From NCBI GenBank assembly GCA_016212295.1, contig JACRGO010000237.1:215-64214 (forward strand): a stretch of 64,000 nucleotides of DNA, in the 5' to 3' direction. Made by a program: the position numbers and the translations under genes. Below, piece after piece: positions 5,488 to 64,000 of this stretch. The first letter of the stretch is position 1. Each line of letters starts with the position of its first letter. This DNA is from Nitrospinota bacterium (lineage in GTDB: Bacteria > Nitrospinota > Nitrospinia > JACRGO01). The notes below the pieces were generated by a model. The model saw nothing but the letters and a program-made list of their open reading frames with translations, was not told the origin of the DNA and made no database searches.

Positions 5488-5940
5488 TCACGCGACCTTT
5501 TGCTTAAGAAGGGTTACTTCCCTGAAAAGTTCGATATAACGGTTTTCAAGGGACCTGAATTGCTCCATATCCGGTTTGTTCTGGTAAAGCCCTCTCAGTT
5601 CCCGTATTTCGGCAAGGATATTGTTTATCTGCGATTCAATTGAGTCGAATCTTTTCATATTAAAATTGAAGTGGTCATCAAAGCGCGTGTTCATGTCCTT
5701 TCGCATATCCTCGAAGCGCGAGTTCATATCTGAGCGCATGTCCTCGAAACGCTTGTTGACGTCCTCGAAACGCGAGTTCATATCTGAGCGCATGTCCTCG
5801 AAACGCTTGTTGACGTCCTCGAAACGCTTGTCGATTCCGTCAAGGCGGGCCTCAACCACGGATATTTTTTCTTTTATAATGTCCAGTTCTGGAATGACCA
5901 CGGACCTTATCGCTTCTATAACTGCTTCCTTGATATCCAT
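5488..5940 (-). CDS. coiled-coil protein with internal tandem repeat (DUF1640-like paralog)
   Basis: 150 aa. Repeated 'NKRFEDMRSDMNSRFEDV' units are encoded by a perfect 60-bp tandem duplication at about 5708-5827. The protein shares the 'IDKRFEDVNKRxxDxRSxMNxRF' block with ORF 60362..60835. Confidence 0.55.
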   Translation of the reverse strand: MDIKEAVIEAIRSVVIPELDIIKEKISVVEARLDGIDKRFEDVNKRFEDMRSDMNSRFEDVNKRFEDMRSDMNSRFEDMRKDMNTRFDDHFNFNMKRFDSIESQINNILAEIRELRGLYQNKPDMEQFRSLENRYIELFREVTLLKQKVA

Positions 5941-46212: not shown

Positions 46213-47067
46213 ATGCCAATGGCTATTCACTGGTCAGAATCCGAAGTCGAGGCAGCAGTTGAAGACTACTTCAACATGCTCCGCCAGGAGTTGACCGGTC
46301 GCAAATACAACAAGACCGAGCATCGCCGGGCATTAATGGAACATCTGAACAATCGGTCAGAAGGTTCGGTTGAACTGAAGCATCAAAATATCAGCGCCGT
46401 TCTGATCGAGATGGGTATTCCATACATTGACGGATACAAGCCACGTTCAAACTACCAGCGCACACTACTGCCCGCAGCGGTGTCTGATTTCCTCGCCAAT
46501 CACCCCGAGTTTCACGCGCTGTTCCAAGAGGACTCCGAGGTCGCGCCATCCATCCCATCGGTTGCGGATTTTCTCGCGGCGATGGAAGCTCCGCCAAGGC
46601 CGGAAAACAAGGGCAGCTCAACGATCGCGGAGACTCAAGCTATCTACAATCCCGCCGGTGTGAACTACCTGGAACGGGAGGCGCAAAATCATTCACTAGG
46701 AGACGCCGGGGAACAATTCGTCATCAATTTTGAGCGGGCCAGGTTAATCCACGCCGGGAAGGAATACCTCGCGGATCAAATTGAGCAAATATCAGTCTCG
46801 GTCGGCCCTTCCGCTGGGTTTGATATCCGGTCGTTTGAAGAAAACGGAACAGACCGCTTTATCGAGGCAAAAACCACGAAATACGGCAAGAGCACGCCAT
46901 TCTTCGTTACTCCCAACGAGTTGGATTTCTCACGGGAGAATGCAACCCGGTACTTTCTATACCGTGTCTTCAAGTTCCGCGCGGAACCACGCTTGTTCAC
47001 TTTGCATGGCTACTTGCAGGATCAGTGCATACTCCAGCCGTCGCAGTACTTGGCGAAGCCAGCGTGA
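46213..47067 (+). CDS. COG3183-N-terminal-domain plus DUF3883 (restriction-endonuclease-like) protein
   Basis: The N-terminus 'EAAVEDYFNMLRQELTGRKYNKTEHRRALMEHLNNRSEGSVELKHQNISAVLIEMGIPYIDGYKPRSNYQ' matches the non-catalytic N-domain of HNH-type predicted restriction enzymes. The C-terminal half 'GDAGEQFVINFE...GFDIRSFEENGTDRFIEAKTT...FFVTPNE...YFLYRVF' fits DUF3883. Confidence 0.55.
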   Translation: MPMAIHWSESEVEAAVEDYFNMLRQELTGRKYNKTEHRRALMEHLNNRSEGSVELKHQNISAVLIEMGIPYIDGYKPRSNYQRTLLPAAVSDFLANHPEFHALFQEDSEVAPSIPSVADFLAAMEAPPRPENKGSSTIAETQAIYNPAGVNYLEREAQNHSLGDAGEQFVINFERARLIHAGKEYLADQIEQISVSVGPSAGFDIRSFEENGTDRFIEAKTTKYGKSTPFFVTPNELDFSRENATRYFLYRVFKFRAEPRLFTLHGYLQDQCILQPSQYLAKPA

Positions 47068-47129
47068 AATCTGGCAATGCGTTGCAACTGGCGTATTGAC
47101 ACGATTTGATCTTTTTTATAACATGAAGG

Positions 47130-47714
47130 CGAAAATATATCCCCCCTGCTTCTTCGGAAGCAGGGCGCGAGGCCGGGGATGCCGATTTCGATACCCTCAT
47201 CGCCTGCGCCTTCAACTATGACGCCCATTCCTCGGAATTCGATAAACTGGGCCGGATTCCGGTGCTCAAGGCCAGGATGAACGCCGACCTGCACATGGCA
47301 GGCGACCTCAAGAACACCGGCAAGGGGAACCTTTTCGTCATCTTCGGAGAGCCGGACATTGACATCCTCGACGCCGGGGACGGGCAGGTGCGGGTGAAGA
47401 TCAACGGCGTGGATGTCTTTCATCCCAACACCGGAGAGATTCGCAGCGACGGCGCGGAGGGGATCGCCTGCTGGTTCATCGACACCGATTATAACGAAGA
47501 GAGCTTCTTTGTCCGCCACGCCTATTTTCTCGGGGCCAACGATCCCTACAAGTCCCTCAAAACCACCCTCAAGGCCGAGATCAACGAAGAAGCCTGGGGT
47601 ACCCTGAACAGCGACACCTCCCGCCCCTTCCGGAAACCAAAATCCGGTCGGATCGCGGTAAAGGTGATCAATCATCTGGGGGATGAGGTGATGAAGGTGT
47701 TTCGTCTGAAATGA
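47130..47714 (+). pseudogene. orphan C-terminal fragment of a DNA methyltransferase (type III Mod / type IIG-like)
   Basis: The frame opens right after an in-frame TGA with no start or N-terminal catalytic domain. The C-terminal 'EAWGTLNSDTSRPFRKPKSGRIAVKVINHLGDEVMKVF' resembles the conserved tail of adenine-specific Mod-type methyltransferases. It is GC-rich, unlike its neighbours. Confidence 0.4.
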
Positions 47715-47744
47715 TAGAATTTTGTATTTTAGAACATTGAAAGA

Positions 47745-49258
47745 GTGTTCACGGGAGTGTCTGCCATGCGCCTGACTATCGAACAGCTCCAAAGCATTAT
47801 GAACTCCACGGAAGGGGAGCATTTCGAATTCAAGGAAGCCAAAACCAAATTTCATTTTGAGAAGCTCCTTAAATATTGTGCTGCTTTAGCGAATGAGGGT
47901 GGTGGGGAAATGGTTCTCGGCGTTACCGACAAACGGCCAAGACATGTGGTTGGAACTCAGGTGTTTTCTCAACCGGAACGGACGAGAAGCGGGCTTATTG
48001 AAAAGCTGCGTTTAAATATCAATTTTGATGAAGTCCAGCATCAAAATGGGCGCGTCCTGATTTTTCACGTTCCCTCTCGCCCCGTCGGAATGCCGATCAA
48101 GGCGGAAGGCGTTTACTGGGAACGAAAAGCCGACAGCTTGGTTCCTATGTCTGAAAATCGGCTTCGTGAAATCTTCTCCGAGGCAGGGCATGACTTTTCA
48201 GCCCAGATATGTTCAGGCGCAACAATAGCTGATTTGATCCCGGCGGCCATTGAAGATTTCCGGAACCGGTGGCTTATCAAGTCAAACAATCCCGGTTTAT
48301 CCACGTTGAGCCATGAACAGCTTCTTTCCGACGCCGAAGCGGTTGTTGATGGTTATCTTACCTATGCCGCGTTGATCTTGTTCGGAACAAAACAAGCTCT
48401 GGGCAAGTGTTTAGCCCAATCCGAGGTGGTTTTTGAATATCGGTCTTCCGATGCCTCAGGTCCAGCCCAGCATCGAGAAGAATTTAGAGAAGGGTTTTTC
48501 AGTTATTATGAAAAATTATGGAAGTTGATTAATTTGCGTAATGATATCCAGCACTTTCAGTCAGGTTTATTCCTGCTGGATATCCCGACTTTTTCGGAAC
48601 GGCCAGTTCGAGAAGCTGTCTTAAACGCCGTCAGCCACCGGGATTATCAGCTCGGAGGCAGCATCTTTATTCGCCAATATCCAAGGAAGTTGGTGTTTGA
48701 GAATCCAGGCGGATTTCCGGTTGGCATAAATCTCGATAATATCCTTGATCGCCAGTCGCCGCGCAATCGCCGCATCGCGGATATTTTTGCAAAATGTGGT
48801 CTTGTGGAGCGTTCCGGTCAAGGCATGAACCTGATGTTTGAGCGAAGCATTCAGGAAAGCAAAGCAATACCTGATTTTTCCGGCACTGATCAGTACCAAG
48901 TGATATTGAAAATCGCCTTCAACCTCGATTACAGACACTAGTGTCAAAAGGCGTCATCGAGCGCTTTGGCCGTGGGCGCGGTGTTAAATACATTCTCAGC
49001 CGTCAATATTATCAGATGGTAGGGAGTAGGGGTGTATATACGAGAAAGAAGGGATTGGATCGTGAAACAAACAAGACCTTACTTTTGAAACATATCGTTG
49101 AAAATTCCGAAACCGGAAGCCGCCTCAAGGAACTGAGACAAGTGCTTCCTTCGTTATCAATGCCACAAGTGCAAACCCTGCTTAGAGAACTTAAATTAGA
49201 AAGAAAAATTCATAAAACTGGAGCTACACGAGCGGCTCTTTGGCATGCCAATCTTTAA
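47745..49258 (+). CDS. Schlafen/AlbA_2-domain ATPase-like protein (COG2865 family) split by a frameshift at 48941
   Basis: ORF 47745..48941 has an N-terminal AlbA_2-like 'EGEHFEFKEAKTKF...' and a HATPase_c_4-like middle. ORF 48941..49258 (GTG start overlapping the TAG) carries 'GVIERFGRGRGVKYIL' and a wHTH, which normally forms the C-terminus of the same polypeptide. Confidence 0.6.
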
Positions 49259-49384
49259 TAAATCTATTGCATCAGCAAAAAAATCTAATTGCAATCCAAA
49301 TGCAATATAATACCCCAAGGTCTTTAATTACAAATAGTTAATATATATCGCTATTTAATTTGATATATAAAATTATGCAATAAA

Positions 49385-51457
49385 ATGGAATTTCGAATAG
49401 CCGATACCTTTACCGACAGCCTTTCCAAACTTAACGGAGAGGAACAGAAGGCCGTCAAGACCACCGCCTTCGACCTCCAGATGAATCCAGCCAATCCGGG
49501 GATGCAGTTTCATAAACTGGACAGGGCCAAGGACGCCAATTTCTGGTCAGTCCGTGTGAGCCGGGACATCCGATTAATTGTCCACAAAACAAAATCCAGC
49601 CTCCTGCTCTGCTATGTCGGGCACCATGATGACGCCTATCACTGGGCCGAACGGCGAAAACTGGAAACGCACCCGAAGACCGGCGCCGCGCAGATGGTTG
49701 AAGTTAGGGAGACCATAAAAGAAATCACCATCCCCAAATATGTTGAGGTTGAGCAACCCGTACCTTCCAAGCCCTCCCTGTTTTCGGATGTGTCCGACAA
49801 TGAACTCCTGAATTACGGTGTGCCGTCCGAGTGGTTGAACGATGTGCGGAAAGCCAATGAGGACAGCCTATTGGAACTGGCCGGCCACTTGCCAGGCGAG
49901 GCAGCCGAGGCGTTGCTCAATCTGGCCACCGGGGTGACGCCGCAAATCGCACAGCCGGGTTCCACTGAAGTTGATCCCTTTGACCATCCCGACGCCAAGC
50001 GGCGGTTCCGGGTGATGAACAATGTCGAGGAACTTGAACGTGCCCTGGAATATCCCTGGGAGAAATGGACTGTCTTTCTTCACGCCGCGCAACAGGAGTA
50101 TATAGAACAGGATTACACCGGCCCGGCAAGGATTTCCGGTTCCGCTGGCACTGGCAAGACTATTGTGGCCCTCCATCGAGCGGTTTTTCTTGTCCGTTCC
50201 AACCCTGAAGCCAGGGTGTTGCTCACCACATTCTCCGATACCTTGGCGAATGCACTGAGAACAAAATTGAGACGCCTGATCTGCAACGAACCGAGTCTGG
50301 GCGAACGTCTGGAAGTTTACGCCATGAATCAAATTGGCCTCAGACTCTATGAACTGAATTCTGGACGTCCACGGATCGCATCCCGAAAAGATATCAAGCA
50401 ATTTCTTGAAGAAGCCTCCATTCAAATAGAAGGACACAAGTTTACCCTGCATTTCCTGATGACGGAGTGGGAGGAGGTTGTTGACGCATGGCGGTTGGAA
50501 ACCTGGAAGGCGTACCGCGATGTTACGCGACTGGGAAGAAAAACGCGTCTGCCGGAGAAACAACGTGCCATGCTCTGGTCTATTTTTGAACGTGTGAGGT
50601 CCAATCTGAAGACCCGGAATCTTGTAACATACTCCGCCTTGTTCAGTCGTCTGACGTCTCAACTGGGTAAAAGCAAGCACCCGCCTTTTGATTTCGTCGT
50701 TGTGGACGAGGCACAAGATGTTAGTGTGGCTCAATTGCGGTTTCTGGCTGCCCTTGGGGCCAGACGAAAGGACAGCCTTTTTTTTACCGGAGACCTTGGG
50801 CAGAGGATTTTCCAGCAACCCTTCTCCTGGAAGGAACTTGGCATTGATATTCGCTGGCGTTCCCGCACACTGAGAATTAATTACCGCACCTCACACCAGA
50901 TCAGAATACAGGCTGATCGGTTGTTGGGACCTGAGTTGTCCGACGTGGACGGCAATGCAGAAGAACGGCGCGGTACAATTTCTGTTTTCAACGGGCAAAA
51001 TCCAACTATTATGATTTTAGATAGTCAGAAAGAAGAAATTAAAATGGCCGGCAAATGGATATCGGACCGTATAGGGGAAGGCTTAGCGCCAAGCGAGATA
51101 GGCGTTTTTGTCCGTTCCGAAGCGGAACTGGACAGGGCGCGGACCGCTGTTAAAAAAACGGGCTTGCCCTATAAGGTTCTCGACGAGAAGGTCGAAACAA
51201 CCGCCGGAAATATTTCCATCAGTACCATGCACCTTGCCAAGGGCCTGGAGTTCCGCGCCGTTGCTGTGATGGCCTGTGATGATGAGGTTCTTCCCTTGCA
51301 AGAAAGAATCGAATCCGTAGCGGATGATTCCGACCTGGAAGAGGTTTACAACACGGAACGTCATTTGCTTTACGTAGCCTGTACCCGGGCACGGGACTAT
51401 CTTCTTGTAACAAGTGTTGATCCGGCATCGGAATTCATTGATGATTTGAAGATGTGA
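49385..51457 (+). CDS. UvrD/Rep-like SF1 helicase with N-terminal RelE/ParE-like domain
   Basis: 690 aa. The N-terminal roughly 90 aa 'FWSVRVSRDIRLIVHKTKSSLLLCYVGHHDDAYHWAE' fits the RelE/ParE toxin-fold consensus. The rest has Walker A 'GSAGTGKT', a DEAQD box 'VVVDEAQDV' and C-terminal UvrD motifs 'ISTMHLAKGLEFRAVAVM...VACTRARDYL'. Confidence 0.7.
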   Translation: MEFRIADTFTDSLSKLNGEEQKAVKTTAFDLQMNPANPGMQFHKLDRAKDANFWSVRVSRDIRLIVHKTKSSLLLCYVGHHDDAYHWAERRKLETHPKTGAAQMVEVRETIKEITIPKYVEVEQPVPSKPSLFSDVSDNELLNYGVPSEWLNDVRKANEDSLLELAGHLPGEAAEALLNLATGVTPQIAQPGSTEVDPFDHPDAKRRFRVMNNVEELERALEYPWEKWTVFLHAAQQEYIEQDYTGPARISGSAGTGKTIVALHRAVFLVRSNPEARVLLTTFSDTLANALRTKLRRLICNEPSLGERLEVYAMNQIGLRLYELNSGRPRIASRKDIKQFLEEASIQIEGHKFTLHFLMTEWEEVVDAWRLETWKAYRDVTRLGRKTRLPEKQRAMLWSIFERVRSNLKTRNLVTYSALFSRLTSQLGKSKHPPFDFVVVDEAQDVSVAQLRFLAALGARRKDSLFFTGDLGQRIFQQPFSWKELGIDIRWRSRTLRINYRTSHQIRIQADRLLGPELSDVDGNAEERRGTISVFNGQNPTIMILDSQKEEIKMAGKWISDRIGEGLAPSEIGVFVRSEAELDRARTAVKKTGLPYKVLDEKVETTAGNISISTMHLAKGLEFRAVAVMACDDEVLPLQERIESVADDSDLEEVYNTERHLLYVACTRARDYLLVTSVDPASEFIDDLKM

Positions 51458-53578: not shown

Positions 53579-53882
53579 CTTTTTTGCTTAACAAAATAGA
53601 GGATAAAAATCAGCCACGAATGAACACGAAGTTTCACGAATTTTTAAAAATTTCTTTTAAATTAGCGCCCCTTAGTATTCATTCGCGGCTAAATAACATT
53701 TTTGTTCTATAATTTTTCCATACTTTTTAAAAAGGATAGACCGGATGTCGCCAACTTGTCAATTCTTGTTTTTATTATCGCGATACCTTTTTCACGTAAG
53801 GCCGTCTAATAATTTGTGGCTTTTTCTGGAAAAAAACATTATACTTAATAAAGAAAAACTAGCCTTAATTAAGGGGAAAAAA

Positions 53883-54662
53883 ATGAAAAAATCCTTATTT
53901 TTAGGGATCGTTATAATGGGCCTTTTAGGGATAAGCGCCTCCGCCGTTTATTCGCAGGAAACCATTACAACCGACCTCAAGAAAAAAATCAAGGAAATAG
54001 AAGTCAGGGGAAATGTAACTGTCCCAACGGATATAGTTCTCCCTCTTATCCACTTGAAAGTCGGGGATTACTTCAGTGAAGAGGCGCTCAAGGAAAACAT
54101 CAGCAGCATACTGAAACTCGGTGAGTTCGAGGGCGTGGAGGCAAGGCAGGTGGATGTCCCAGGGGGCATTAACCTCCTGTTTTTTGTCAAGGAGATAGAT
54201 AAACGCGTCCAGGCCATCAAGATAAAGGGAAACATGAAGACAAGACGTGATGAAATCAGGGGCCGCCTTCTGATTAACGAAGGGGACAAATACAACTACC
54301 AGTTGGTCCAGGAAGAAATTTCACGTCTTTACGGCACGCAGCAATTTGAAAAAGTCGAGGTTATCAAGAAGGATATTCCAGGTGGACTGGAACTCACTTA
54401 TGTGGTGACGGAGTTCCCCACGGTATCTGATCTTCCAACATCCACGAAATACGGCCCTGTAAAGTTTCAAACCCTGCCTTCCAAACCAGGGATACCTTAT
54501 GTAAGGTCCACCTCGGTTCCAGGCTTCACCGACAACGAAGACAAATTCCCCTTCATGAATAGAACGCCGGATTATTATAAGGATGAATTCTATACCGGAT
54601 CAAAACAGGGGCCTTTGATGTTCAGCATCGGCGCCTCCCACAATTTCCTGGGCTCCAAATAA
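53883..54662 (+). CDS. POTRA-domain protein (Omp85/TpsB-like N-terminal region) lacking a beta-barrel
   Basis: It has a signal peptide and two POTRA-like units ('IKEIEVRGNVTVPTDIVLPLIHLKVGDYFSEEALKENISSI' and 'IKIKGNMKTRRDEIRGRLLINEGDKYNYQLVQEEISRL'). It ends where a barrel would begin and overlaps the downstream minus-strand ORF. Confidence 0.55.
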   Translation: MKKSLFLGIVIMGLLGISASAVYSQETITTDLKKKIKEIEVRGNVTVPTDIVLPLIHLKVGDYFSEEALKENISSILKLGEFEGVEARQVDVPGGINLLFFVKEIDKRVQAIKIKGNMKTRRDEIRGRLLINEGDKYNYQLVQEEISRLYGTQQFEKVEVIKKDIPGGLELTYVVTEFPTVSDLPTSTKYGPVKFQTLPSKPGIPYVRSTSVPGFTDNEDKFPFMNRTPDYYKDEFYTGSKQGPLMFSIGASHNFLGSK

Positions 54663-55778
54663 ATCGTCAAATTTGTATTCTTCGGTTAAAAATGAGTTCA
54701 AGGCCATGTGGATAAGGCGGGGGTTCAGTCCGCGCTTGAGTCCCAAGCATATCTTTTCAAACATCTTCATCTTTATTTGAAGTTCATCCATCAGCGCCTT
54801 CTTTTTGTTTTTTAAAACCTCATCCGCATCCAACGGCATCCAGCCGTCCACCGCCATCAACAGGCCCTGATTCCAGTAAGGGGTTGACCCTTCAGCATAA
54901 GTTTCCAGGATCAATATGCCCTCATGTCTTGCCTTGCACACATACGCGACTATATTTTTTATAACCTCCCCATCGTTCATGGCATCGGTGATTGGCTTGG
55001 GTTCCTGCCGGCTTGTTTCCTCAAAAAACGCCTCGGCGGTTAATGGAGCGTCCGGAAACAACGAATTGAGTTTTTTCATTAGCAAATAGGGGTTGTCCCC
55101 ATCGCCAAGCCCTCTAATTCCAATTCGCATCATTTCCAATCTCCGCCCGGATTCGTATAAAACGGACCGGCGTTTTTTCTCCGCTTCCGAAACTATTTGC
55201 CCGGCGGAGCAATCATCCAGGGTCATTTCAAAGAGATACCTGCTGAAGGGATCTTTTATTTTGTCCATGATCGCGTCAAGAACAAGGGGGCTCTCTCTTC
55301 GGACTTCCCGGCAGACAGGGAGCCAGTATTTCATGATTTCCTTAAAGGAAGCCTTGGTTAAATAAAATTCTCCCATTTCCTCCCTGTCCCCTGATTTTTC
55401 CCGTTCTTCTTTATAGTCCCCAATTAAAACTTCCTTTTCCTGGCGCAAAATTATGTAACCCCTTTCTTCATATTTTCTGACGAGGCCAAGGATTTTTTCT
55501 TGAACTTCCTTGATCTCCTTTAAAAAGGGATATTTATCCGCGCTGGATTCATGAAATCGAGTATATTCCGCTAAAATGTATTCAATGGAACGCCTCCTTA
55601 CCCGGTTTACATTGTTTAAAACCCTTATTTGAAGTTGCTCAGGCTCATTTAACATGGCCAGGGCGATGGTATCATTGAGGAGCCCGTCCTCCCCGGAAGC
55701 GCCCCACAAAACTATTTGCAACGACCTGTCATCAAGAAGCCTCAGAATCTCTATTCCGTGTTTTTCAAATGGGTCCAT
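54600..55778 (-). CDS. hypothetical protein
   Basis: 392 aa, helical and soluble, with no recognisable motif. Confidence 0.4.
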   Translation of the reverse strand: MDPFEKHGIEILRLLDDRSLQIVLWGASGEDGLLNDTIALAMLNEPEQLQIRVLNNVNRVRRRSIEYILAEYTRFHESSADKYPFLKEIKEVQEKILGLVRKYEERGYIILRQEKEVLIGDYKEEREKSGDREEMGEFYLTKASFKEIMKYWLPVCREVRRESPLVLDAIMDKIKDPFSRYLFEMTLDDCSAGQIVSEAEKKRRSVLYESGRRLEMMRIGIRGLGDGDNPYLLMKKLNSLFPDAPLTAEAFFEETSRQEPKPITDAMNDGEVIKNIVAYVCKARHEGILILETYAEGSTPYWNQGLLMAVDGWMPLDADEVLKNKKKALMDELQIKMKMFEKICLGLKRGLNPRLIHMALNSFLTEEYKFDDLFGAQEIVGGADAEHQRPLF

Positions 55779-56057: not shown

Positions 56058-56960
56058 TTATTCCATCTTAATCATAGCTTTAATATTTATAGCCGACAGC
56101 CCTTCCTGCTCGTCAATAATGTCCAGGGCGCCAATGCCGTTGATGGATTTGGCCCCCGCCATTAGCTTCAATATGAAGTCGTCCTTTTCCCCGCTAAAGG
56201 GAAAGGCATAAACGGAGGTATGCTGTGTGGAATCGTAAGTCCTCTTGGGGCTTTTCCCTGCGGCCTCCCTGATTATTTGCGAAAATCTGATGGAGGTCTC
56301 GGAATCAAGGACATTGGATATCAGGAGATGAATGGATTTGCCGTTCTTCGCCATGTCATTTATCTTCTCCTGGATTTTAGTGGTCAGGAACGCGGCTGTA
56401 TCCCTGGCCGCCTTGATTTTCGCTGTTTTCATGCTGCTCCCCATGCCGGTCTTATTCCCGGTAAGCACGGCCAGAACGTCCGCGCTTTTGGGGTCCACCA
56501 CCTTCAGTTCTTCCACGATGAGCTTGACCACGTAAAACCCTGAGTCCTTTCCCATGTCCTGAAACTCATGATTCGCGGATACGGTGTAATCCGCGGAAAG
56601 CGCGCCTGCCAGGGAGTTGAGCACCTTGGATTCGCTCTCCGCCAATGCGCCTTTTGAGAGTTCCGCGTCATCGTATTTTTCCTGAAGCGACCCCATGACG
56701 GTTTCCTGTACGCCCTTGTCCCGCAACTGGCTAGCGTAATGTTCTTTCGCTTTTTTGAGATCGCTGTCGGCAACAACCCTAAAGCCCTGTTTCTGAAACT
56801 CCGACTGAAAGGCTGTGGAGAGGGTGGCGTCTTTGCTGTAAAAAAGGAAGAGGGGGGAGGGCGTGTTATCCTGGGCTTGGGCGAAGTCAGGACCAGGCAC
56901 AAAGGCACAGAGGCACAAAGGCAGAAAGATAAAAAAATTAAAGAATCGTTTTAATGACAT
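56058..56960 (-). CDS. secreted (lipo)protein, LPP20/FlgP-like domain(s)
   Basis: It has a signal peptide ('FIFLPLCLCAF'). Segments such as 'GFYVVKLIVEEL' and 'AKIKAARDTAAFLTTKIQEKI' resemble LPP20-family lipoproteins. Confidence 0.4.
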   Translation of the reverse strand: MSLKRFFNFFIFLPLCLCAFVPGPDFAQAQDNTPSPLFLFYSKDATLSTAFQSEFQKQGFRVVADSDLKKAKEHYASQLRDKGVQETVMGSLQEKYDDAELSKGALAESESKVLNSLAGALSADYTVSANHEFQDMGKDSGFYVVKLIVEELKVVDPKSADVLAVLTGNKTGMGSSMKTAKIKAARDTAAFLTTKIQEKINDMAKNGKSIHLLISNVLDSETSIRFSQIIREAAGKSPKRTYDSTQHTSVYAFPFSGEKDDFILKLMAGAKSINGIGALDIIDEQEGLSAINIKAMIKME

Positions 56961-57098
56961 TTTTAACGGCTCCTTGTTCAGGGTTCAGGGTTCAGGGTTC
57001 AGGGTTGGAAGAACCCTGGCCTTTTAATTTTTGATGGTTAATTGGATATAAAAGACGCCGTGTAACCGGTAACCGTGAACCATGAACGCTTACCAAAT

Positions 57099-58331
57099 TC
57101 ACAAGCCACCGAATTTGTCTTTCAGGACGCTTGCCAATTGCCCTTGAATGTTCTTCGTTATTTTCTCCACTTCTTTTTCAATGTCGTTTTCGTTCATGTA
57201 TGTCCCGCCTTTTTCGATGTTCGCGGTTGTTTTAAGTCCGCCCGTCGCCGTGTCGTAAACATTCAATTGAAGCGTTCCTTTTACCCCTCCCGCCGCTTCC
57301 TCCCCTTTTCGTTCCGAAATTTCCACCAGGAATTGGGCGTCGATTACATAGTTGGCCGCTTCCGCCAGGGTTTTCCCGGACCTGTCTTCAAACCAGCGCA
57401 AGGCGGCTTGATTCAGAGAGGCATCGTTGACCCAGGTTATATTCTGGCCTTCCAAAAAATTTCCCACTCCAGTCTTCAAGGCTTCCTGATGCTGGGGGTA
57501 TTTTTTGTCAGGTTGGGTCTTGGACACGATGATGAACTTTTTTGCCGCAATGCCTTTTAAATGGAAGGGGGCGAGACGGGCGGGGATGGCAACGGAGACG
57601 GTAGAATAATTCTGGCTGCCCGCATCCGTGAGCAAGGACATCTTGACCTGGTATTCGTTTCCAGCCTGGCCGATTTCCGTTTTCACGGTCCAGTGGACCG
57701 AAGCGCCCTTTTTATCAAAGACATTGGGATAGGGAGAACTCTTCGTCCATATTCCGCCCAGCGTCTTGCGGATATATTCCCCCAGCCCCGGCTCCGGCTT
57801 CCCTTGGAATACCGGCTCCTCCATGAAGAAGTTCTGGTCGATGGCGGAAAAATGCGTATCCTCCACAAGCTTTTGAAGATAATCGTCAAAATGCTCCTGG
57901 TATAGGGAAGGCCATTTGGTTTCCAGGGATTTTATTTCGTAGGAGGCCAGTTTTCCGCCGGTTTTCGTGTCGATGATCTTCGCGTACAGTTCCGCTTTTT
58001 CGCCTTTCAGGCGGATGAAACCGGTGAGCGAGTATCCTGTCTTGGCGCCTAAATAGGGGAGCATAACCCCCTTCTTGCCTTCATTCTTGAGCAGATTCAC
58101 CAACGCATCGTTCAAAAAGCGGGTCAGGGGAATAATCTTGTTTTCCTTGGTCTTGAATAGGTCGATGGAGACCAAAAGCTCGTCTTGTTTGATTTGCCTT
58201 TCCAGGTTTTGGACGATCTCGCACGCCAGAGACGCCGCGTATTCCTTTTCGTCCGCGTAGGCATGGGGAAGAAAGACTATAGTGCATAACAGTATATATA
58301 AAGGCAGTATGAATCTAAGCCTTCCAAGCAT
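57099..58331 (-). CDS. secreted hypothetical protein
   Basis: 410 aa with an N-terminal signal peptide. No family recognised. Confidence 0.4.
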   Translation of the reverse strand: MLGRLRFILPLYILLCTIVFLPHAYADEKEYAASLACEIVQNLERQIKQDELLVSIDLFKTKENKIIPLTRFLNDALVNLLKNEGKKGVMLPYLGAKTGYSLTGFIRLKGEKAELYAKIIDTKTGGKLASYEIKSLETKWPSLYQEHFDDYLQKLVEDTHFSAIDQNFFMEEPVFQGKPEPGLGEYIRKTLGGIWTKSSPYPNVFDKKGASVHWTVKTEIGQAGNEYQVKMSLLTDAGSQNYSTVSVAIPARLAPFHLKGIAAKKFIIVSKTQPDKKYPQHQEALKTGVGNFLEGQNITWVNDASLNQAALRWFEDRSGKTLAEAANYVIDAQFLVEISERKGEEAAGGVKGTLQLNVYDTATGGLKTTANIEKGGTYMNENDIEKEVEKITKNIQGQLASVLKDKFGGL

Positions 58332-58529
58332 TTGACCAAGCCCTCCTTTTTATTGATTGACATGGCGCGGCCTTTGCTTTTCCACCGCAACTTTAGCTCG
58401 CCTTGCCACTGTGGCACAGGTAAAGGACACTCCCATAGCGGCCTGCACAACCGACTCTATAAAGAGCGCATCAACCGCATTAAGGCATGTTGGTTTTTAA
58501 GCCTGCCCTGACGCGTCGGCGGCCGATTG

Positions 58530-59273
58530 TCATTTTGCCTGCCGTCCGGTATTAGGCTTATTTCCGGCGTTGCCGCCACCAACCGCATTGAACATTCCGC
58601 CAAACACACCGCCGATGGTTCCCAAAGCTTCTTGGGCCTCTTGCTTTCCCTCTTCCCGCTTTTGGGCCTTTCTCATTTTCTCTTTTTCGTCTTGCGGGAT
58701 GTCCATCTTCGCAATTTCTTGCTGTTCCTTATCTGTCAGCACGGATTCTTTTGTGAAATTTTTCAGAAGCTCGTCCGCGACTTTATCCGCCAAAAAATCA
58801 TAATCATTCTCATTTGCCTGGGCCTTCACGGAAGTGACAACCTGCTTGGAGCCAACGTCAATGAATCTTGCCGTAAGTATTAAGTTAGTTTTAGACTTCG
58901 TCAATTTGGAAACAACGATTTTGGTGGCGCCAAGGCTCTCGACCATTTTGGCTTGATCCTCTTCGCTCATTTTAAACTTTCCTCCTTCAAGAGAGGAGTC
59001 CCTTTCCTTCATGGCGAGTTGCAATTGAGAGCGTTCAAATATGACCAATTTAGTGGATCGAGAAAAAATATCTGTAAAAGTATCCACCACTCCTTTGGCA
59101 TATTCCGAGGCTCCTTCCACCGCGTTTTCGCAATCAAAAATAGCAATCTTATCTTTCTCACCCGCTACGGCGGTTCCTGAGCAGAACTGAATAATGCAGA
59201 GAAGCATTAATAAAGATGAAAGAAGCGATAGAAAAACGCCATTGATGGTTTTTATTGTTTTTTTCGCAGTCAT
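58530..59273 (-). CDS. CsgG/LpoB-fold lipoprotein
   Basis: It has a signal peptide with lipobox-like 'IQFCSG'. 'KIAIFDCEN...YAKGVVDTFTDIFSRSTKLVIFERSQLQLAMKE' matches the CsgG/LpoB-like pattern. The C-terminal tail is disordered and Gly-rich. Confidence 0.5.
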   Translation of the reverse strand: MTAKKTIKTINGVFLSLLSSLLMLLCIIQFCSGTAVAGEKDKIAIFDCENAVEGASEYAKGVVDTFTDIFSRSTKLVIFERSQLQLAMKERDSSLEGGKFKMSEEDQAKMVESLGATKIVVSKLTKSKTNLILTARFIDVGSKQVVTSVKAQANENDYDFLADKVADELLKNFTKESVLTDKEQQEIAKMDIPQDEKEKMRKAQKREEGKQEAQEALGTIGGVFGGMFNAVGGGNAGNKPNTGRQAK

Positions 59274-59578
59274 TTTATTCCTCCTGTTTTTTATTCTGTC
59301 ATGATTTTTTGGGGTATATAAAACCGGGATTCTTCGTCGCGGAATTTATACTGAGTGAAACGAATGTGCTCCTCAGTTAATATGTAGGCCGTGACAAAGC
59401 GTCGGAATCATTTTTAAAATGGATAGAAAAATCATTGCCTTTAAAAATATCACATGCCTTTCTCCTCCTCCTTTTAAAAAAATATTGGAAAATGAAATAC
59501 CGTGAAACTGCTTCATGTTTTCAATGCTTGGTTGTCCCACCCCCCTTCCTATAAAAATAAACCGATTGCCCTTATTCC

Positions 59579-60322
59579 TTATTCCATCACAACACTCATC
59601 TCCAGCTTTACCCCATTAGCATTCTCTTCCAGCCAGTTTTCCTCTGCCGTGTCCAATAATTTCATAGCGTTGTCTTTGGATAAACCGTGCTCTTTTGTCA
59701 GTTTCTTTAAAAGATCTTGCTTCGCCGCCCTGCGCGTGTTTTCTTTCATGGTTCGAATCAATCCTATCTCGTCTTTGTCCGCATGATAATCACGCAGGGT
59801 TTTAACCTTCTTTTTTTGAGACTCCAGATCCAATTCAAAAAAATACTGCTTGGTGTTAGACAGGACCTTGCCGTCTTTTCTGTTTATGGCCTTATAAGAG
59901 AGACGGACCCCTTTTTCTTCCGCCCACATGCTTCCCACAATCAAGAGGTCAATTCCAACCTTGGATAAGTATTCCTCCCCATCTTCATCTTTTGAGCCAA
60001 AACGCTCATTTTCCTTTGCCAGCTTTTCCAGGTCCGCTCGTTCCACGAAGGCATGATTTTTTCCGCCCCTTGTAATGAGAGCGGACATCAAGCCGTCGTT
60101 AAACTTTTTTGCTGTTTCAGGGGAAATAGGTCCCTCTTTTTTTTCGAATTCCCGAATGCCGATTTTAAAGGAACTGTTGAGTGGGGATAAAATTTCTTCC
60201 GCCATCTGACTGAAGTTAGTCTCGTATGCGGTTTGGCCGGCAAAGGAGGGTGGAGAAAAAAAGAGGTAAAAAATAAAGAGGTAAAAAATCAGCCTGGTTT
60301 TCAAGATCGAGGTTTTATTCAT
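59579..60322 (-). CDS. CsgG/LpoB-fold lipoprotein paralog
   Basis: The likely start is MNKTSIL (internal Met of ORF 59579..60514), with a signal peptide. 'KIGIREFEKKEG...FNDGLMSALITRGGKNHAFVERADLEKLAKE...GIDLLIVGSM' shows the same fold signature as 58530..59273. Confidence 0.5.
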   Translation of the reverse strand: MNKTSILKTRLIFYLFIFYLFFSPPSFAGQTAYETNFSQMAEEILSPLNSSFKIGIREFEKKEGPISPETAKKFNDGLMSALITRGGKNHAFVERADLEKLAKENERFGSKDEDGEEYLSKVGIDLLIVGSMWAEEKGVRLSYKAINRKDGKVLSNTKQYFFELDLESQKKKVKTLRDYHADKDEIGLIRTMKENTRRAAKQDLLKKLTKEHGLSKDNAMKLLDTAEENWLEENANGVKLEMSVVME

Positions 60323-60361
60323 TTGACAACCCTTTCCGTTTTCTTTTAAGATTAAACCATT

Positions 60362-60835
60362 ATGAGAATTAAACTCTTCCATAAAAGCCTCTTCCCTGTT
60401 TTCGCCTTTGTCTGGCTTTCTTTCTCCCCTAATCCCGGTTTTGCCGTGGAGACCGCGCCCAGAATAACCGACCGCGAGATCGTGGAAAAATTGTCCCGGC
60501 TGGAAGAAGGGCAAAAAAGCATTGATAAACGGTTTGAGGATGTTAATAAGCGCATCGACGATCTTCGCTCCGAGATGAACAACCGGTTTAACGACCTGAA
60601 CCAGCGGTTCAGCGTCCTGCAGTGGATGTTCGGTGTATTCATTACCATCGCCCTCGCTATTTTCGCGGCCATCGCCAGGGTTTTATGGGACCAGAACCGA
60701 AGCCGCGCCGCCCATGAAAAAATCATCCAAAACCTGTCCGGCGAAATAGAATCCCTCAAGCAAACCGACCTTAAACTCATGGACCAGATCCGGGCCCTTA
60801 TCGAGGCCCTCAAGCCTCCCAGGGGGGTTTTGTGA
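60362..60835 (+). CDS. DUF1640-like coiled-coil protein with C-terminal TM helix
   Basis: 157 aa. 'IDKRFEDVNKRIDDLRSEMNNRFNDLNQRFSVLQWMFGVFITIALAIFAAI' is a paralog of 5488..5940. Confidence 0.5.
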   Translation: MRIKLFHKSLFPVFAFVWLSFSPNPGFAVETAPRITDREIVEKLSRLEEGQKSIDKRFEDVNKRIDDLRSEMNNRFNDLNQRFSVLQWMFGVFITIALAIFAAIARVLWDQNRSRAAHEKIIQNLSGEIESLKQTDLKLMDQIRALIEALKPPRGVL

Positions 60836-60997
60836 AATAACCCTCCCCTCCCGTGCTACAAACAACCTATAAAACTTTGTTTTTTTAGCAAAGTTTTTTC
60901 CAGTTCAAGTTTAAAGTGACTAAAGTTTAAAGTGAGCTAACGTTGCGCGGTATAAAAGCAATTTTTTATTTTTTAACTTTAGGCGCTTTAGTTCACT

Positions 60998-61618
60998 TTA
61001 AGCCGCCGGCAAATAATCATTCAGCAGCCTGCTTATCTCTCTTCCTATCTCCCTTGCCGTGTCGATTAAGGTTTCGCGGACGGCGAGGTCCACGTCCGCC
61101 AGGCGCGCATCAGGCCCCATTTCCCTGTACCCCTCCTTGGAAAGTTTCGCAATTATCTTTTTCTTTTTCGCGTCTATGGCCCACGAGTCTATGGAGACAT
61201 TGACGTTCTTGTCTCCCTCTCCCGTCTTTCCCCGTTTACGGACCTGAATGTCCAGAAAAAGAACGATGTTTCTTTTTTCCCGCTTAGAGACCCGGACCCC
61301 CTCGTTAATCATGTCGATCTCTCCTCGGGCGGTAAACTCGCTGGCCACTACGGAGGGATAGGCAACATTGATAAGAATCTCCCGGAGGGCGTTGGTTATT
61401 TCGCCGCCGACCGCCAAAGCCAGATCCGAGTTGTGAGACAGGGACTGGTTGGTTCTCTTATAGAACTCCATGACCGCCGCCGCTCTGTCAAAGGAATCCT
61501 TGTCCGTGTAAATTCCGGCTGCCGTTTTATCCGTGGCCGTGGCAATCGGATGTTTTGAGGCGCACCCGGAGGCAAGGAGCGCTGCGATAGCCGCCGCGCA
61601 TAAAGACATTTTTTTCAT
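60998..61618 (-). CDS. lipoprotein
   Basis: The likely start is MKKMSLCAAAIAALLASGC, a classic lipobox. The mature protein is about 190 aa and of unknown family. Confidence 0.5.
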   Translation of the reverse strand: MKKMSLCAAAIAALLASGCASKHPIATATDKTAAGIYTDKDSFDRAAAVMEFYKRTNQSLSHNSDLALAVGGEITNALREILINVAYPSVVASEFTARGEIDMINEGVRVSKREKRNIVLFLDIQVRKRGKTGEGDKNVNVSIDSWAIDAKKKKIIAKLSKEGYREMGPDARLADVDLAVRETLIDTAREIGREISRLLNDYLPAA

Positions 61619-61713
61619 AAAAATCCTCTCTTTTGAAATGAGTCGTGTGTCATGAGTCATGTGTCGTGCGATCTTCGTCCTTCGTGATTCGCCCTTCGTC
61701 TCTCGTCCCTTTA

Positions 61714-62628
61714 TCAATTGGACTGGCGGACGCGGATTTTCGATAGCGTCATTTCCGTTCCCTGTGTGCTTGTTGAGACCGGAATCTTCAAGTCCTTCAA
61801 AATCAGATCAAATTCCGACGTCAATTTGGACTGGTCCGCCGTGGACCGGTATTCCACTTCGGCCGCGGTCGGCGTTTGCTTGAGCTGGCGATGGGAGACA
61901 TAGCCTTCCACTTTGGAAAAGGAGTCCAAAACATCCTCAAGCTCTCCGGTCTCAAATTTTTTAAAGGTGAGCGTGTAGATGCGCCCGCTCTCCTCTAATT
62001 TACTCCTGTTTTTTCCGCCCTTATCCATGAATCCCGGCGCCTGGCCTCCGCCTCCCCCGCCTCCGACATGGGCCTTGATTTGCAAGCCGAGCTCTTTCGC
62101 GGCCTGGGCCGCCACGTCCTTGGCCGATTCCCCTGCGGCATCCATGATCTGGGGTTTCTGAAATGGGGCGCGCACCGTAACCGGCACCTCGGTGGTCACG
62201 TCCACCTTTCCAATGGTCCTGGCGGATTTATCGACAAAAAACGCCTCCAAAAAAATTTGCGCCCTTACTTTTTTGAATCCCCCTGTATCTTCCAGCCACG
62301 GGGTAACCTGAAAGATGACGGCGATGTCGCAATGGGCCGCCTGCGCGATTCCCGCCAGCTCCGCTTTGTTTCTGGCCCCTTCCGTGTAAGTGTCTTTCAC
62401 GGCCACAACTTCGTCCTTCACTTCAAAATCAAAATCCTGGATAAGGATGTCGGTGATCTCCGTCAGCGTCTGCTGGAATGTCCTGCTTTCGCGGGAAAGG
62501 GACTCCGGAAATTCCTTTTGCCCGAAAAACATCATGACAGGCTTGTCATACGCGAAAGAGGGCATGGGCGCGGCAAATAAAACAGCCGAAAAAATGGACA
62601 AAAACAAAACCATGATTTTTGTTCTCAT
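61714..62628 (-). CDS. secreted hypothetical protein with Gly-rich linker
   Basis: The likely start is MRTKIMVLFLSIFSAVLFAAPMPSFA (signal peptide). It has a 'GGGGGGQAPG' linker and overlaps the downstream lipoprotein gene by 4 nt. Confidence 0.45.
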   Translation of the reverse strand: MRTKIMVLFLSIFSAVLFAAPMPSFAYDKPVMMFFGQKEFPESLSRESRTFQQTLTEITDILIQDFDFEVKDEVVAVKDTYTEGARNKAELAGIAQAAHCDIAVIFQVTPWLEDTGGFKKVRAQIFLEAFFVDKSARTIGKVDVTTEVPVTVRAPFQKPQIMDAAGESAKDVAAQAAKELGLQIKAHVGGGGGGGQAPGFMDKGGKNRSKLEESGRIYTLTFKKFETGELEDVLDSFSKVEGYVSHRQLKQTPTAAEVEYRSTADQSKLTSEFDLILKDLKIPVSTSTQGTEMTLSKIRVRQSN

Positions 62629-62838
62629 TATGGATATCCTCCGTTGTTGGGTTGTTTGAAAGCAGATAAATGACAAAAAAATATTCCTTGGCTGACACCT
62701 CCTTCCAAAAAATTTTGGTAACAATTCACGGCGCGGCCTTTGGCCGCAACCAAAGGGAAAACATGAGCCTCTCGATTCCCTCACGATTTTCTCACGATTT
62801 TAAAATAGTTTTTTAAATCGAGAAGTAATCATGAAGCT

Positions 62839-63130
62839 AAAAATTGTAATAGTTCAGCCCTGTCTAATCCACCTGTCTGTGTGCGGACACGCACAGGCAG
62901 GAATGAGCTGTTATACTGGTTTTTAATAACTCCGCCATTTATGGCGGAGAAACGAAAACAACTACCCGGCTTTAGCCATGACTTTACTGCCCGCGCTTCG
63001 TGCGCCAGAGCGCGTCGCGCGCTGACAGGCAAATATAGTCAGGGCTAAAGCCCTACTTAGTTTGTTCACAGGCTCCAGCCTGAAGGCTGGAGTTAATAAC
63101 TGTCCATAAGGGTGAACTATTACAAAAATT
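62839..63130. mobile_element. MITE-like structured element with 12-19-bp terminal inverted repeats (TGTAATAGTTCA)
   Basis: The left arm 'aaaaattgtaatagttca' (62839-62856) is the reverse complement of the right arm 'tgaactattacaaaaattttt' (63113-63130). The interior is a chain of hairpins. There is no coding capacity. Confidence 0.55.
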
Positions 63131-63185
63131 TTTGGGCAGAGCGAAGAATCTCAAGCCTTTCATGTTTCACCGAGAATTGCTGTTT

Positions 63186-64000
63186 CTATTGGTCCTTCTT
63201 TTTTTGGCGTTTTTGGTGGTCTTTAAGTTGCCCGTTTTTTTGGGTTATATAATTTTTCTTGTCCTGGGATAGGGGGGCGGAGGCAAGCCAGGATTCCAAT
63301 GATTCAAAGGACCAGCCTGAAAAGAAATCCTCCTTGAGCGCGGCCTCCAGTTTTTGTCCCGCCTCTTTGACGTCTCGTCCCAGGGCGGCAAGGGCTACGC
63401 ATTGCAGATACAGGGCAATGGCCCGGTCTTTTCTTTCCCCGGCTATTTTCAGAGTTTTGGGAATAATGGCCAGGGCATTTTCATATTGATTCTGAATGAT
63501 ATAAAACTCGGTAAGGTTGTTGTAAGGCTTGGCGTCTTCCGGATGGAGTTCAATGGCCTTGTAAAAGTCCTGTATGGCCTTGTCATACTCCTTGAGATAT
63601 CTATAGGCGCTGCTCGTGTAGTCGCGAGCCGAGGCGTCTTTCGGATCGAGTTCAATGGCCTTGTCAAAGTCCCGTATGGCCTTGTCATACTCCTTGAGAT
63701 CGATATAGGCGTCTCCTCTGTTGCTGTAAGCCGAGGTGTCTTTCGGATTGAGTTTAATGGCCTCGCCATAGTCCCGTATGGCCTTGTCATACTCCTTGGA
63801 CAAGCGATAGGCATTTCCTCTGTTGTTGTAAACCGAGGCGTACTTTGGATCGAGTTCAATGGCCTTATCATAGTCCCGTATGGCCTTGTAGTACTCCGTG
63901 AGATTGCTATAGACGCTTCCTCTGTTGTTGTAAGCCGAGGCGTATTTTGGATCGAGTTCAATAGCTTTGCCGTAGTCCCGTATGGCCTCGTCATACCTCT
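63186..64000 (-). CDS. TPR-repeat protein (partial, continues beyond the window end) built from near-identical 102-bp tandem repeats
   Basis: 'YDKAIRDYGEAIKLNPKDTSAYSNRGDAYIDLKE' units repeat at least five times. The same frame stays open to position 64000. The overlapping ORF 63449..63994 in another frame is repeat-driven and spurious. Confidence 0.65.
   Translation of the reverse strand, partial: RYDEAIRDYGKAIELDPKYASAYNNRGSVYSNLTEYYKAIRDYDKAIELDPKYASVYNNRGNAYRLSKEYDKAIRDYGEAIKLNPKDTSAYSNRGDAYIDLKEYDKAIRDFDKAIELDPKDASARDYTSSAYRYLKEYDKAIQDFYKAIELHPEDAKPYNNLTEFYIIQNQYENALAIIPKTLKIAGERKDRAIALYLQCVALAALGRDVKEAGQKLEAALKEDFFSGWSFESLESWLASAPLSQDKKNYITQKNGQLKDHQKRQKKKDQ

Follow-up and report, generated by a model that had tools for sequence, protein, structure and literature searches.

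A gene cluster for exported proteins in Nitrospinaceae with a FlgT-like member and a possible role as a periplasmic scaffold

FlgT assembles into a 26-mer ring; the rings of FlgO and FlgP are anchored by lipids (bioRxiv 10.64898/2025.12.02.691832; PMC13626733). FlgT, a component of the Vibrio H-ring, has three domains, designated N, M, and C. PelC, a lipoprotein with a single domain, is a product of the pel operon, which also encodes PelB; according to the titles of its PDB entries, PelC forms a dodecameric ring. Its fold, which recurs in the cluster described here, also occurs in monomeric binders, for example LpoB and LptE, and this weighs against reading the fold as evidence of a ring or scaffold. 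HpaA is a lipoprotein of Campylobacterota (Helicobacter pylori) and has, to our knowledge, no established mechanism. Here, these systems are compared with a gene cluster in a window of 64,000 nucleotides from a Nitrospinae MAG contig. The H-ring is found in Gammaproteobacteria, whereas the host of the cluster belongs to Nitrospinaceae. The main reading, to which we assign a probability of about 0.4, is that six products of the cluster form an outer-membrane-tethered periplasmic scaffold that occurs in just a few members of the Nitrospinaceae.

Organization of the gene cluster

Positions 56058-62784 of the window hold seven consecutive annotated genes, as stated in the original prediction. The minus strand carries six of them (G7, G6, G4, G3, G2, and G1) and the plus strand a single one, G5 (60362-60835); the loci HZA01_17180..17210 are each annotated as 'hypothetical'. 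The predicted export of the products is in agreement with hydropathy and inspection, according to which all six minus-strand products are Sec-exported, with a single N-terminal hydrophobic signal segment and no further transmembrane segment.

The corrected starts of G4 (60322), G6 (61618), and G7 (62628) are internal ATGs located after a Shine-Dalgarno-like, AG-rich sequence. The corrected models of G4 and G6 are identical to the NCBI models, and the 304-residue model of G7 is the NCBI record P0012. Because the true starts are internal and the open reading frame calls were over-long, there is no 4-nt overlap among the minus-strand genes, and the operon coupling proposed from such overlaps is not supported. 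From G7 to G1, the corrected gaps are 95, 675 (containing G5), 305, 198, and 138 nt. Given the long gaps of 95-305 nt and the interruption by G5, co-transcription in the window is at most putative. The genes are real; the dN/dS ratio is 0.20 for G1 and 0.20 for G2, calculated against a relative that is 81-88% identical.

G5 (HZA01_17200, 60362..60835, plus strand) encodes a coiled-coil protein of 157 residues with an N-terminal signal-like segment and a transmembrane segment at residues 82-111. A coiled coil combined with a C-terminal transmembrane segment is common to G5 and XhlA/DUF1640 (CCDC90-like) proteins, and the Pfam scores are below threshold for both XhlA (29.9 bits, cut-off 34.7) and CCDC90-like DUF1640 (20.1 bits, cut-off 33.5). 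The G5 family is multi-copy, with a paralog at positions 5488-5940 of the window, and no counterpart of G5 was found in the syntenic clusters L002, L004, and L006. G5 is an unrelated insertion outside the conserved cluster.

FlgT-like protein G7 and the recurrent fold

The signature gene of the cluster and its most conserved member is G7 (HZA01_17210, 61714..62628, minus strand), which encodes an exported, two-domain, FlgT-like protein of 304 residues. In the AlphaFold model, the N-terminal domain (residues ~30-188; 62065..62541, minus strand) has the secondary-structure order b-a-b-a-b-b-b-b-a and an alpha/beta fold of the TolB-N/PelC/CsgG/HpaA/FlgT-M type. The C-terminal domain (residues ~214-298; 61735..61989, minus strand) is modelled as b-a-b-b-a-b-b, and the two domains are linked by a glycine-rich, low-confidence stretch. 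Foldseek ranks the Vibrio H-ring protein FlgT as the best match of G7 (E 7e-6, ~297 columns, 11% identity), and the two domains align with it in order. Because the alignment spans ~297 columns, the C-terminal domain of the G7 model plausibly corresponds to FlgT-C. The domain sizes of ~158 and 85 residues compare with residues 121-287 of FlgT-M and 292-377 of FlgT-C (bioRxiv 10.64898/2025.12.02.691832). G7 resembles FlgT in being periplasmic, as predicted from its export signal, and non-lipidated. However, G7 does not match FlgT at the sequence level: it has no Pfam hit, the FlgT_N/M/C models included, and searches of the PDB at E <= 10 with profiles of 8 and 83 sequences did not find the FlgT entries 3w1e and 8z5n.

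The G7 superfamily was defined by our own profiles A1/A5 of ~300 positions; no Pfam model exists for it. At E <= 1e-3, profile search identified 177 representative clusters; at the stricter limit of E <= 1e-10 it identified 57. Against the 83-sequence profile, of which it is itself a member, G7 gives a full-length match with 259 bits, and independent family members from L008, L010, and L012 reach 267-406 bits. When ten members were scanned with Pfam, none had a family over the G7-like region and eight were hitless. Relatives encode a paralog of G7 of 387 or 401 residues (hhalign 98%), and the N-terminal extension gives weak Pfam FlgT_N hits in two paralogs of this type (FlgT_N E 0.0037). The N domain of FlgT is absent from G7 and weakly indicated in this paralog, which the window lacks.

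G6 (HZA01_17205, 60998..61618, minus strand) encodes a single-domain protein of 206 residues homologous to the N-terminal domain of G7 (hhalign against the deep G7-family profile: probability 94.9%, E 4.3e-8, 188 columns). Judged by sequence, it is the only lipoprotein of the cluster. The lipobox is LASGC in G6 and LSAC or FSAC in orthologs, and the lipobox cysteine is kept in four orthologs. In relatives, G6 comes after G7 without exception.

G3 (HZA01_17190, 58530..59273, minus strand) encodes an exported protein of 247 residues with a FlgO/CsgG-superfamily domain and a charged, glycine-rich tail. Its matches to Pfam CsgG (PF03783; 19.5 bits, E 6.5e-4, cut-off 20.8) and FlgO (PF17680; 19.6 bits, E 8.7e-4, cut-off 22.6) are below the cut-offs, and the NCBIfam TolB N-terminal region is matched with E 7.4e-5. 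Within the G3 family (n=10), FlgO is matched by all ten members at E <= 0.01 (best E 1.7e-6) and CsgG by nine; the ortholog in L002 holds the equivalent position. G4 (HZA01_17195, 59579..60322, minus strand), also exported and 247 residues long, has a weak CsgG/FlgO-like core (CsgG 18.0 bits, E 0.0019, below the cut-off of 20.8; FlgO E 0.026) and a conserved C-terminal domain of ~70 residues. The 54% identity of G4 to the same-position gene of L002 is confined to the C-terminal 69 residues. By inspection, G3 (…AVA|GE) and G4 (…SFA|GQ) have type-I-like signal peptides and no lipobox, whereas FlgO has a lipidated cysteine (bioRxiv 10.64898/2025.12.02.691832).

G2 (HZA01_17185, 57099..58331, minus strand) encodes an exported, multi-domain protein of 410 residues. 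Its overall model is of low confidence, and its C-terminal domain (~264-407) has the fold of the G7 N-terminal domain and retrieves the same structures as matches. The last gene of the cluster, G1 (HZA01_17180, 56058..56960, minus strand), encodes an exported protein of 300 residues. Assignment of G1 to DUF6175 (PF19672) was rejected: the score of 18.6 bits is below the cut-off of 23, and the orthologs from L004 and L006 have no hit at E <= 0.1.

Most minus-strand products, at least five of the six, have the CsgG/LpoB/TolB-N-type fold, with the support for G3 and G4 being sub-threshold. The original prediction of CsgG/LpoB-like lipoproteins is supported as to the fold, but lipidation is limited to G6. 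The known carriers of the fold differ from the cluster in several respects. PelC differs in its context, as there are no pel genes and no barrel here. HpaA and its paralogs (HP0492, 3bgh) have 10-12% identity and do not share the gene context. The cluster lacks the beta-propeller and Tol-Pal genes of TolB and the LptD partner of LptE, a long disordered linker of the LpoB type was not identified in its products, and there are no DUF799 or DUF4810 matches as in GNA1162/DUF799 lipoprotein clusters.

Conservation in Nitrospinaceae

The gene neighbourhood is conserved in relatives, as anticipated, in the form of the modules G7-G6, G2-G1, and G4-G3, which are confined to a few Nitrospinaceae. The order is SLT-401aa-G7'-G6'-G4'-G3' in L002 and L007 and M4-229aa-SLT-387aa-G7'-G6'-G2'-G1'-... 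in L004, L005, and L006. L009 carries G2'-G1', and its synteny stops at the stop codon of G1; G1 orthologs stand after G2 in L004, L006, and L009. In relatives, the core lies within a tight 12-gene array that encodes an MltC-type lytic transglycosylase (SLT), one to three M4 metalloproteases, and the three-domain FlgT-like paralog. The M4 peptidases and SLT share a repeated D-D-G-F-L-G-D motif, which is also present at the extreme C-terminus. None of the SLT, M4, and 387-aa genes is present in the window, nor is any copy of the motif. The composition of the array suggests a structure that passes through peptidoglycan and possibly positions these enzymes.

In the proposed scaffold, most of the products would use a common small alpha/beta fold of the TolB N-terminal, PelC, CsgG-core, LptE, HpaA, and FlgT-M type, which typically serves as an oligomerising or docking module beneath the outer membrane. 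G7 would have an M+C layout as in FlgT, and G6, as a lipoprotein copy of the G7 N-terminal domain, would tether the scaffold to the membrane. Further layers of the scaffold would come from G2, G3, G4, and perhaps G1.

It is also conceivable, albeit unlikely, that the products do not form a common machine and represent a lineage-specific expansion of independent periplasmic binders or regulators. Such LpoB-, LptE-, or HpaA-like adaptors would serve cell-wall enzymes or surface proteins, and the adjacency of their genes would stem from duplication history. The recurrent fold, the demonstrable paralogy of G7 with G6 and with the 387-aa protein, the long intergenic gaps in the window, and the differences in module content among genomes are consistent with this explanation, as is the finding that distant G7-family genes form tandem paralogs adjoining lipoproteins of the OmpA-like or 17-kDa-antigen kind. 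The G4-G3 and G2-G1 modules occur separately, which is as compatible with loosely associated paralogs as with a fixed complex. However, proteins only 40-55% identical still retain the gene order G7-G6 and G2-G1, which together with the tight intergenic spacing of 2-66 nt in L004 suggests co-expression. Furthermore, the divergence of most members is too great for a recent duplication: hhalign detected no relation among G1, G2, G3, and G4.

Possible flagellar, export, and scaffold functions

Under the scaffold reading, the role of the cluster is probably non-flagellar. The alternative that the cluster is a flagellar outer-ring accessory, an H-ring or basal-disc analogue of the Nitrospinae motor, appears improbable. 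In such an assembly, G7 would take the part of FlgT around the LP-rings, and the outer rings would consist of FlgO-like G3, G4, and G2, together with the lipoprotein G6. The cluster indeed co-encodes FlgO-like proteins of the G3 family and a lipoprotein, and the weak FlgT_N hits of the three-domain paralogs point in the same direction. The product of the gene immediately downstream of G1 (54600-55778) combines a FliG_C domain with a region resembling the MotA loop; however, synteny with the closest relative does not extend to this neighbour. The window also contains Maf-like, MCP, and FliK-like genes, but the FliK-like and Maf-like genes, which had been taken as a pointer to an assembly, are ~13 kb and ~47 kb away amid housekeeping genes. 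The core genome of Nitrospina/Nitromaritima includes flagellar genes (PMC5029188), yet a search of 185,579 species genomes found the G7 family in just 2. No flagellar gene flanks the cluster loci L002, L004, L006, and L009 or the distant G7-family loci L008, L010, L011, and L012, and flgP and flgT, which accompany FlgO, do not adjoin G3. Equivalents of MotX, MotY, and FlgP were not found; no cluster product has a Pfam LPP20 match at E <= 1, which speaks against the LPP20/FlgP-like member proposed originally. The failure of the 83-sequence profile to retrieve FlgT from the PDB also argues against a flagellar function.

There is similarly little reason to favour an export function, in which the cluster would supply the periplasmic or outer-membrane portion of a secretion path. 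Its funnel would resemble PelC or CsgG and would carry a polymer, or else the lytic transglycosylase and M4 proteases that relatives co-encode. PelC and CsgG rank among the best structural matches, the secreted M4 peptidases and SLT are co-encoded in relatives, and their common motif could be a docking or sorting signal, but the cluster contains no PelB- or secretin-like beta-barrel partner, glycosyltransferase and amyloid-subunit genes are absent, a nearby POTRA-only protein is outside the conserved synteny, and the window encodes neither of the putative cargo enzymes. A CsgG-type pore is unlikely: the CsgG matches of G3 and G4 cover only the soluble core (profile positions 32-106 of 210), the domains of ~140 residues are too small for the transmembrane hairpins of CsgG, and neither the cluster nor its neighbours have Pfam or NCBIfam matches to the curli partners CsgE, CsgF, and CsgA/B. 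The ring analogy in the original prediction of a disc, ring, or pore is reasonable, as the best structural match of G7 is FlgT.

An extension of the scaffold reading, which we regard as very unlikely, is that FlgT-like proteins belong to a wider, uncharacterised family of periplasmic ring builders. In Nitrospinaceae, members of this family would combine with FlgO-like proteins and a lipoprotein tether into a non-flagellar platform that resembles the H-ring and lies beneath the outer membrane, and in relatives the lytic transglycosylase and M4 proteases would dock to it through a shared D-D-G-F-L-G-D-L motif. If this were true, FlgT-like proteins would not be a gammaproteobacterial flagellar invention, and the platform would be a new kind of device that secretes proteins or holds enzymes at the envelope, from which the flagellar H-ring may have evolved.

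Should the products not assemble, the cluster would merely be catalogued as a rare group of paralogous periplasmic proteins with a common fold. If they do assemble into the scaffold, the main marine nitrite oxidisers would have a lineage-specific structure in their envelope that shares its building module with flagellar H-rings, the PelC funnel, and the core of the curli channel. Genes of the G7 family recurrently stand beside N-extended paralogs and small lipoproteins. These neighbourhoods would give FlgT-like proteins a non-flagellar context and a handle on the origin of the accessory rings of high-torque motors.

Gene organization and export signals

The seven genes of the cluster, numbered G1 to G7 by increasing coordinate (HZA01_17180 to HZA01_17210), are all annotated as 'hypothetical protein'. 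The longest-ORF coordinates of the original prediction overshot the starts of G4, G6, and G7, which are internal ATGs preceded by AG-rich, Shine-Dalgarno-like sequences. With the corrected starts, G4 (59579-60322, minus strand) and G6 (60998-61618, minus strand) match the NCBI models exactly, and the 304-aa model of G7 (61714-62628, minus strand) equals protein P0012. The intergenic gaps are then 95 nt between G7 and G6, 675 nt between G6 and G4, containing the opposite-strand G5, and 305, 198, and 138 nt between the genes that follow; the 4-nt overlaps previously proposed for some genes therefore vanish. A scan for sigma-70 promoters and terminators gave counts not above those in shuffled sequence. 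Because relatives have a divergent CHASE2-sigma54 activator, sigma-54 promoters (TGGCAC-N5-TTGCA, at least 7 of 11 positions with GG/GC cores) were also sought upstream of the cluster genes in the window and in the related loci L004 and L006, with zero matches.

G7 and the neighboring gene, which encodes a TPR-repeat protein (within 62629-64000, minus strand), are ~557 nt apart; the DNA between them is non-coding and contains a bidirectional hairpin at 63040-63055. The TPR gene has its stop at 63186 and exits the window end. The ORF at 63449-63994, in an alternative frame of the TPR gene, is spurious and repeat-derived.

By inspection and hydropathy, the products of G1, G2, G3, G4, and G7 carry a single hydrophobic segment at the N-terminus, with an Ala-X-Ala-like site after it and no transmembrane segment beyond. 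G6 has the lipobox LASGC, the cysteine of which is kept as LSAC or FSAC in three orthologs. The hydrophobic N-terminal segments bear out the expected run of exported proteins, of which one product, G6, is a lipoprotein, not several. G5 (60362-60835, plus strand) has a signal-like stretch at its N-terminus as well as a coiled coil and, at residues 82-111, a transmembrane segment; it also has a sub-threshold match to XhlA (E 6.3e-7, Pfam/NCBIfam). Its membership in the cluster is ruled out by its opposite strand, by a paralog at 5488-5940 (minus strand, 56% identity over 48 aa), and by the absence of a counterpart from every syntenic locus. The two coiled-coil/transmembrane paralogs within 64 kb point to a multi-copy XhlA/CCDC90-like family in the genome, one copy of which was inserted in the cluster.

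Folds of the cluster proteins and the G7 family

Pfam and NCBIfam contain no model matching G2, G6, or G7. Sub-threshold matches connect G3 to the TolB N-region (E 7.4e-5), CsgG (E 6.5e-4), and FlgO (E 8.7e-4), G4 to CsgG (E 0.0019), and G1 to DUF6175 (E 0.0011). The assignment of G3 is strengthened because all ten members of its family match FlgO (best E 1.7e-6) and nine match CsgG. The match of G1 is weakened because its orthologs do not reproduce it, and the identity of G1 as DUF6175 was rejected. The structure of G2 modeled from a three-sequence alignment has a pLDDT of 48.7, and its usable part is the C-terminal domain only. Among all the cluster families compared by hhalign, the significant pairs are G7 with its 387-aa paralog from relatives, and the G7 family with G6, which is homologous to the N-domain of G7 (94.9%, E 4.3e-8 over 188 columns, 83-sequence profile). 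A mutual relation of G1, G2, G3, and G4 was not detectable by hhalign, including domain by domain. Apart from the number of lipoproteins, the details of the overlaps, and an LPP20-like member that was not recovered, the original prediction is largely right in its observations, and its guess at CsgG/LpoB-type folds was good.

Searched against 1.84 billion representatives, an eight-sequence G7 profile finds 177 proteins at E <= 1e-3, 57 of them at E <= 1e-10, and most are approximately 300 aa long. Eight of ten members scanned have no Pfam match; in the remaining two, the matches fall elsewhere than on the G7-like part, one having an abhydrolase domain and the other weak matches to FlgT_N and TPR. 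Before the G7 counterpart, relatives encode a protein of 387 or 401 aa that hhalign (98%) and hmmsearch identify as a paralog of G7; at its N-terminus it carries an additional domain. This domain has a weak match to Pfam FlgT_N in L006 (E 0.0037), and a similar one is found in the multi-domain family member P0161 (E 0.0036). The paralog layout agrees with the description of the flagellar H-ring protein FlgT of Vibrio, which is divided into domains N (residues 24-109), M (121-287), and C (292-377) (bioRxiv 10.64898/2025.12.02.691832; PMC13626733). Searches of solved structures with the G7 profiles (8 and 83 sequences) and the G3 profile gave zero meaningful matches. Since the G7 profiles fail to recover FlgT from the PDB, the relation is one of fold and architecture, and homology is not demonstrated.

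Conservation and gene neighborhoods

G1 and G2 both have a dN/dS of 0.20 relative to L009, a Logan contig with 81-88% identical DNA. Only the G2-G1 pair is common to this contig and the window, and the similarity ends at the G1 stop codon, which places the adjoining downstream gene outside the unit; it was rejected as a cluster member. This gene (54600-55778, minus strand) encodes a 392-aa protein without a transmembrane segment and has no synteny in the closest relative. Its FliG_C domain (residues 10-111, 24.1 bits) is just over the Pfam cut-off, and residues ~267-342 match the MotA/MotP/PomA cytoplasmic loop at E 1.8e-10, with a score well under the family cut-offs; the protein may imitate, in soluble form, the interface of rotor and stator. 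The end of the gene is overlapped by the 3' end of another (53745-54662, plus strand), which encodes a stand-alone protein of ~260 residues from the likely start MKKSLFLG, with two BamA-like POTRA domains (E 1.3e-17) and no beta-barrel. Genes at 46213-51457 resemble a defence island, with a NOV_C-domain protein, a Schlafen AlbA_2 plus HATPase_c_4 protein, and a UvrD-like helicase.

In relatives, synteny is kept as modules. Loci L002 and L007 (Nitrospinaceae PW1) contain genes for a lytic transglycosylase (SLT), the 401-aa protein, counterparts of G7, G6, G4 (C-terminal domain only), and G3, and then a FlgO plus DUF4384 protein. Loci L004/L005 and L006 (Nitrospinaceae OFTM191) and a 182-kb JGI contig, compared by gene layout (sizes and Pfam), have the divergent CHASE2-sigma54 activator and, after it, between one and three M4 peptidases, a protein of 229 aa, an MltC-type SLT (not in L006), the 387-aa protein, counterparts of G7, G6, G2, and G1, and proteins of 423, 68, 455, 388, and 336 aa. 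The intergenic gaps in L004 are 2-66 nt. Genes for the SLT, M4, and 387-aa proteins are absent from the window.

All M4 peptidases of the extended cluster bear the motif [DES]-[DEGS]-G-F-[LI]-[GS]-[DES], one copy after the signal peptide and one, D-D-G-F-L-G-D, at the extreme C-terminus (…DDGFLGDL*); the SLT of L004 has two copies. The motif occurs at positions 5012, 6695, 7587, and 7716 of L004 and 2121, 3861, 4207, 5848, 6214, and 7936 of L006, with zero copies in the window, L008, and L010. A possible role is that of a signal for docking or sorting.

A word-index-limited search of 5.8 billion proteins found 8 clusters for G7, 11 for G3, and 3 for G2. G7 is present in two of 185,579 species, both Nitrospinaceae, scanned with one genome per species, and JGI metagenome contigs gave zero matches to the G7 and G2 profiles. 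Distant G7-family genes form tandem paralogs or adjoin small lipoproteins (OmpA-like, 17-kDa antigen, and 'IAVLPF'-motif proteins read as FlgO-like). Three tandem paralogs follow an OmpA-like gene in L008 (8001-10921), and a G7-like gene in L010 (8001-13943) precedes four envelope proteins, three with lipoboxes. In L012/L013 (L012 2102-5976), an N-terminally extended paralog comes first, and next to it are a G7-like gene, another exported protein (302 aa), and a lipoprotein of the 17-kDa-antigen type. These neighborhoods suggest a wider, undescribed envelope module; the literature on DUF4810/DUF799/CsgG clusters yielded nothing useful.

A putative periplasmic scaffold

The proteins to which the best-matching structures belong work under the outer membrane, as oligomers or as docking modules. 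TolB-N, LptE, and LpoB function as binders; the PDB titles of the structural matches describe PelC as a dodecamer. FlgT forms a 26-mer ring, and FlgO and FlgP form lipid-anchored rings (bioRxiv 10.64898/2025.12.02.691832). The putative role assigned to the cluster is that of a periplasmic scaffold tethered to the outer membrane, a tentative reading with a probability of about 40%. G7 would supply the FlgT-like core and G6 the lipid anchor, with G2, G3, G4, and perhaps G1 as additional layers; in relatives, this putative scaffold is encoded together with the peptidoglycan-cutting SLT and M4 proteases.

A less probable, still conceivable explanation is that the genes encode paralogous binders without connection to one another. 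An analogue of the flagellar H-ring is improbable. The core genome of Nitrospina/Nitromaritima encodes flagellar and chemotaxis genes, so that a motor accessory is possible in principle, although motility has never been observed (PMC5029188). The motility-related genes of the window are isolated: a 605-aa FliK-like protein with a C-terminal Flg_hook domain (41617-43434, plus strand), a Maf-like glycosyltransferase with MptE-like and Maf_flag10_N domains (7552-8940, minus strand), and an MCP whose sensor is Tll0287-like (9302-11323, plus strand). The window contains no flagellar operon, and away from the cluster it carries housekeeping genes (ATP synthase, TrpE, aspartokinase, RtcB, DnaJ). No flagellar gene adjoins the cluster or the distant G7-family genes at the loci inspected, and the gene neighborhoods thus give no support to the flagellar hint of the original prediction. 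In L012 and in the Nitrospinaceae loci with the 387/401-aa proteins, a paralog extended at its N-terminus repeatedly accompanies a two-domain one, which argues for a putative conserved non-flagellar module. An export funnel is equally improbable, and a CsgG-type pore is unlikely because the Pfam matches cover the soluble core alone and the domains lack the length needed for the membrane hairpins of CsgG.

A useful by-product is a family of FlgT-like proteins that has no model in Pfam. The cluster is a rare, lineage-restricted variant of a known theme, that of clustered envelope proteins with TolB-N/CsgG/PelC folds.
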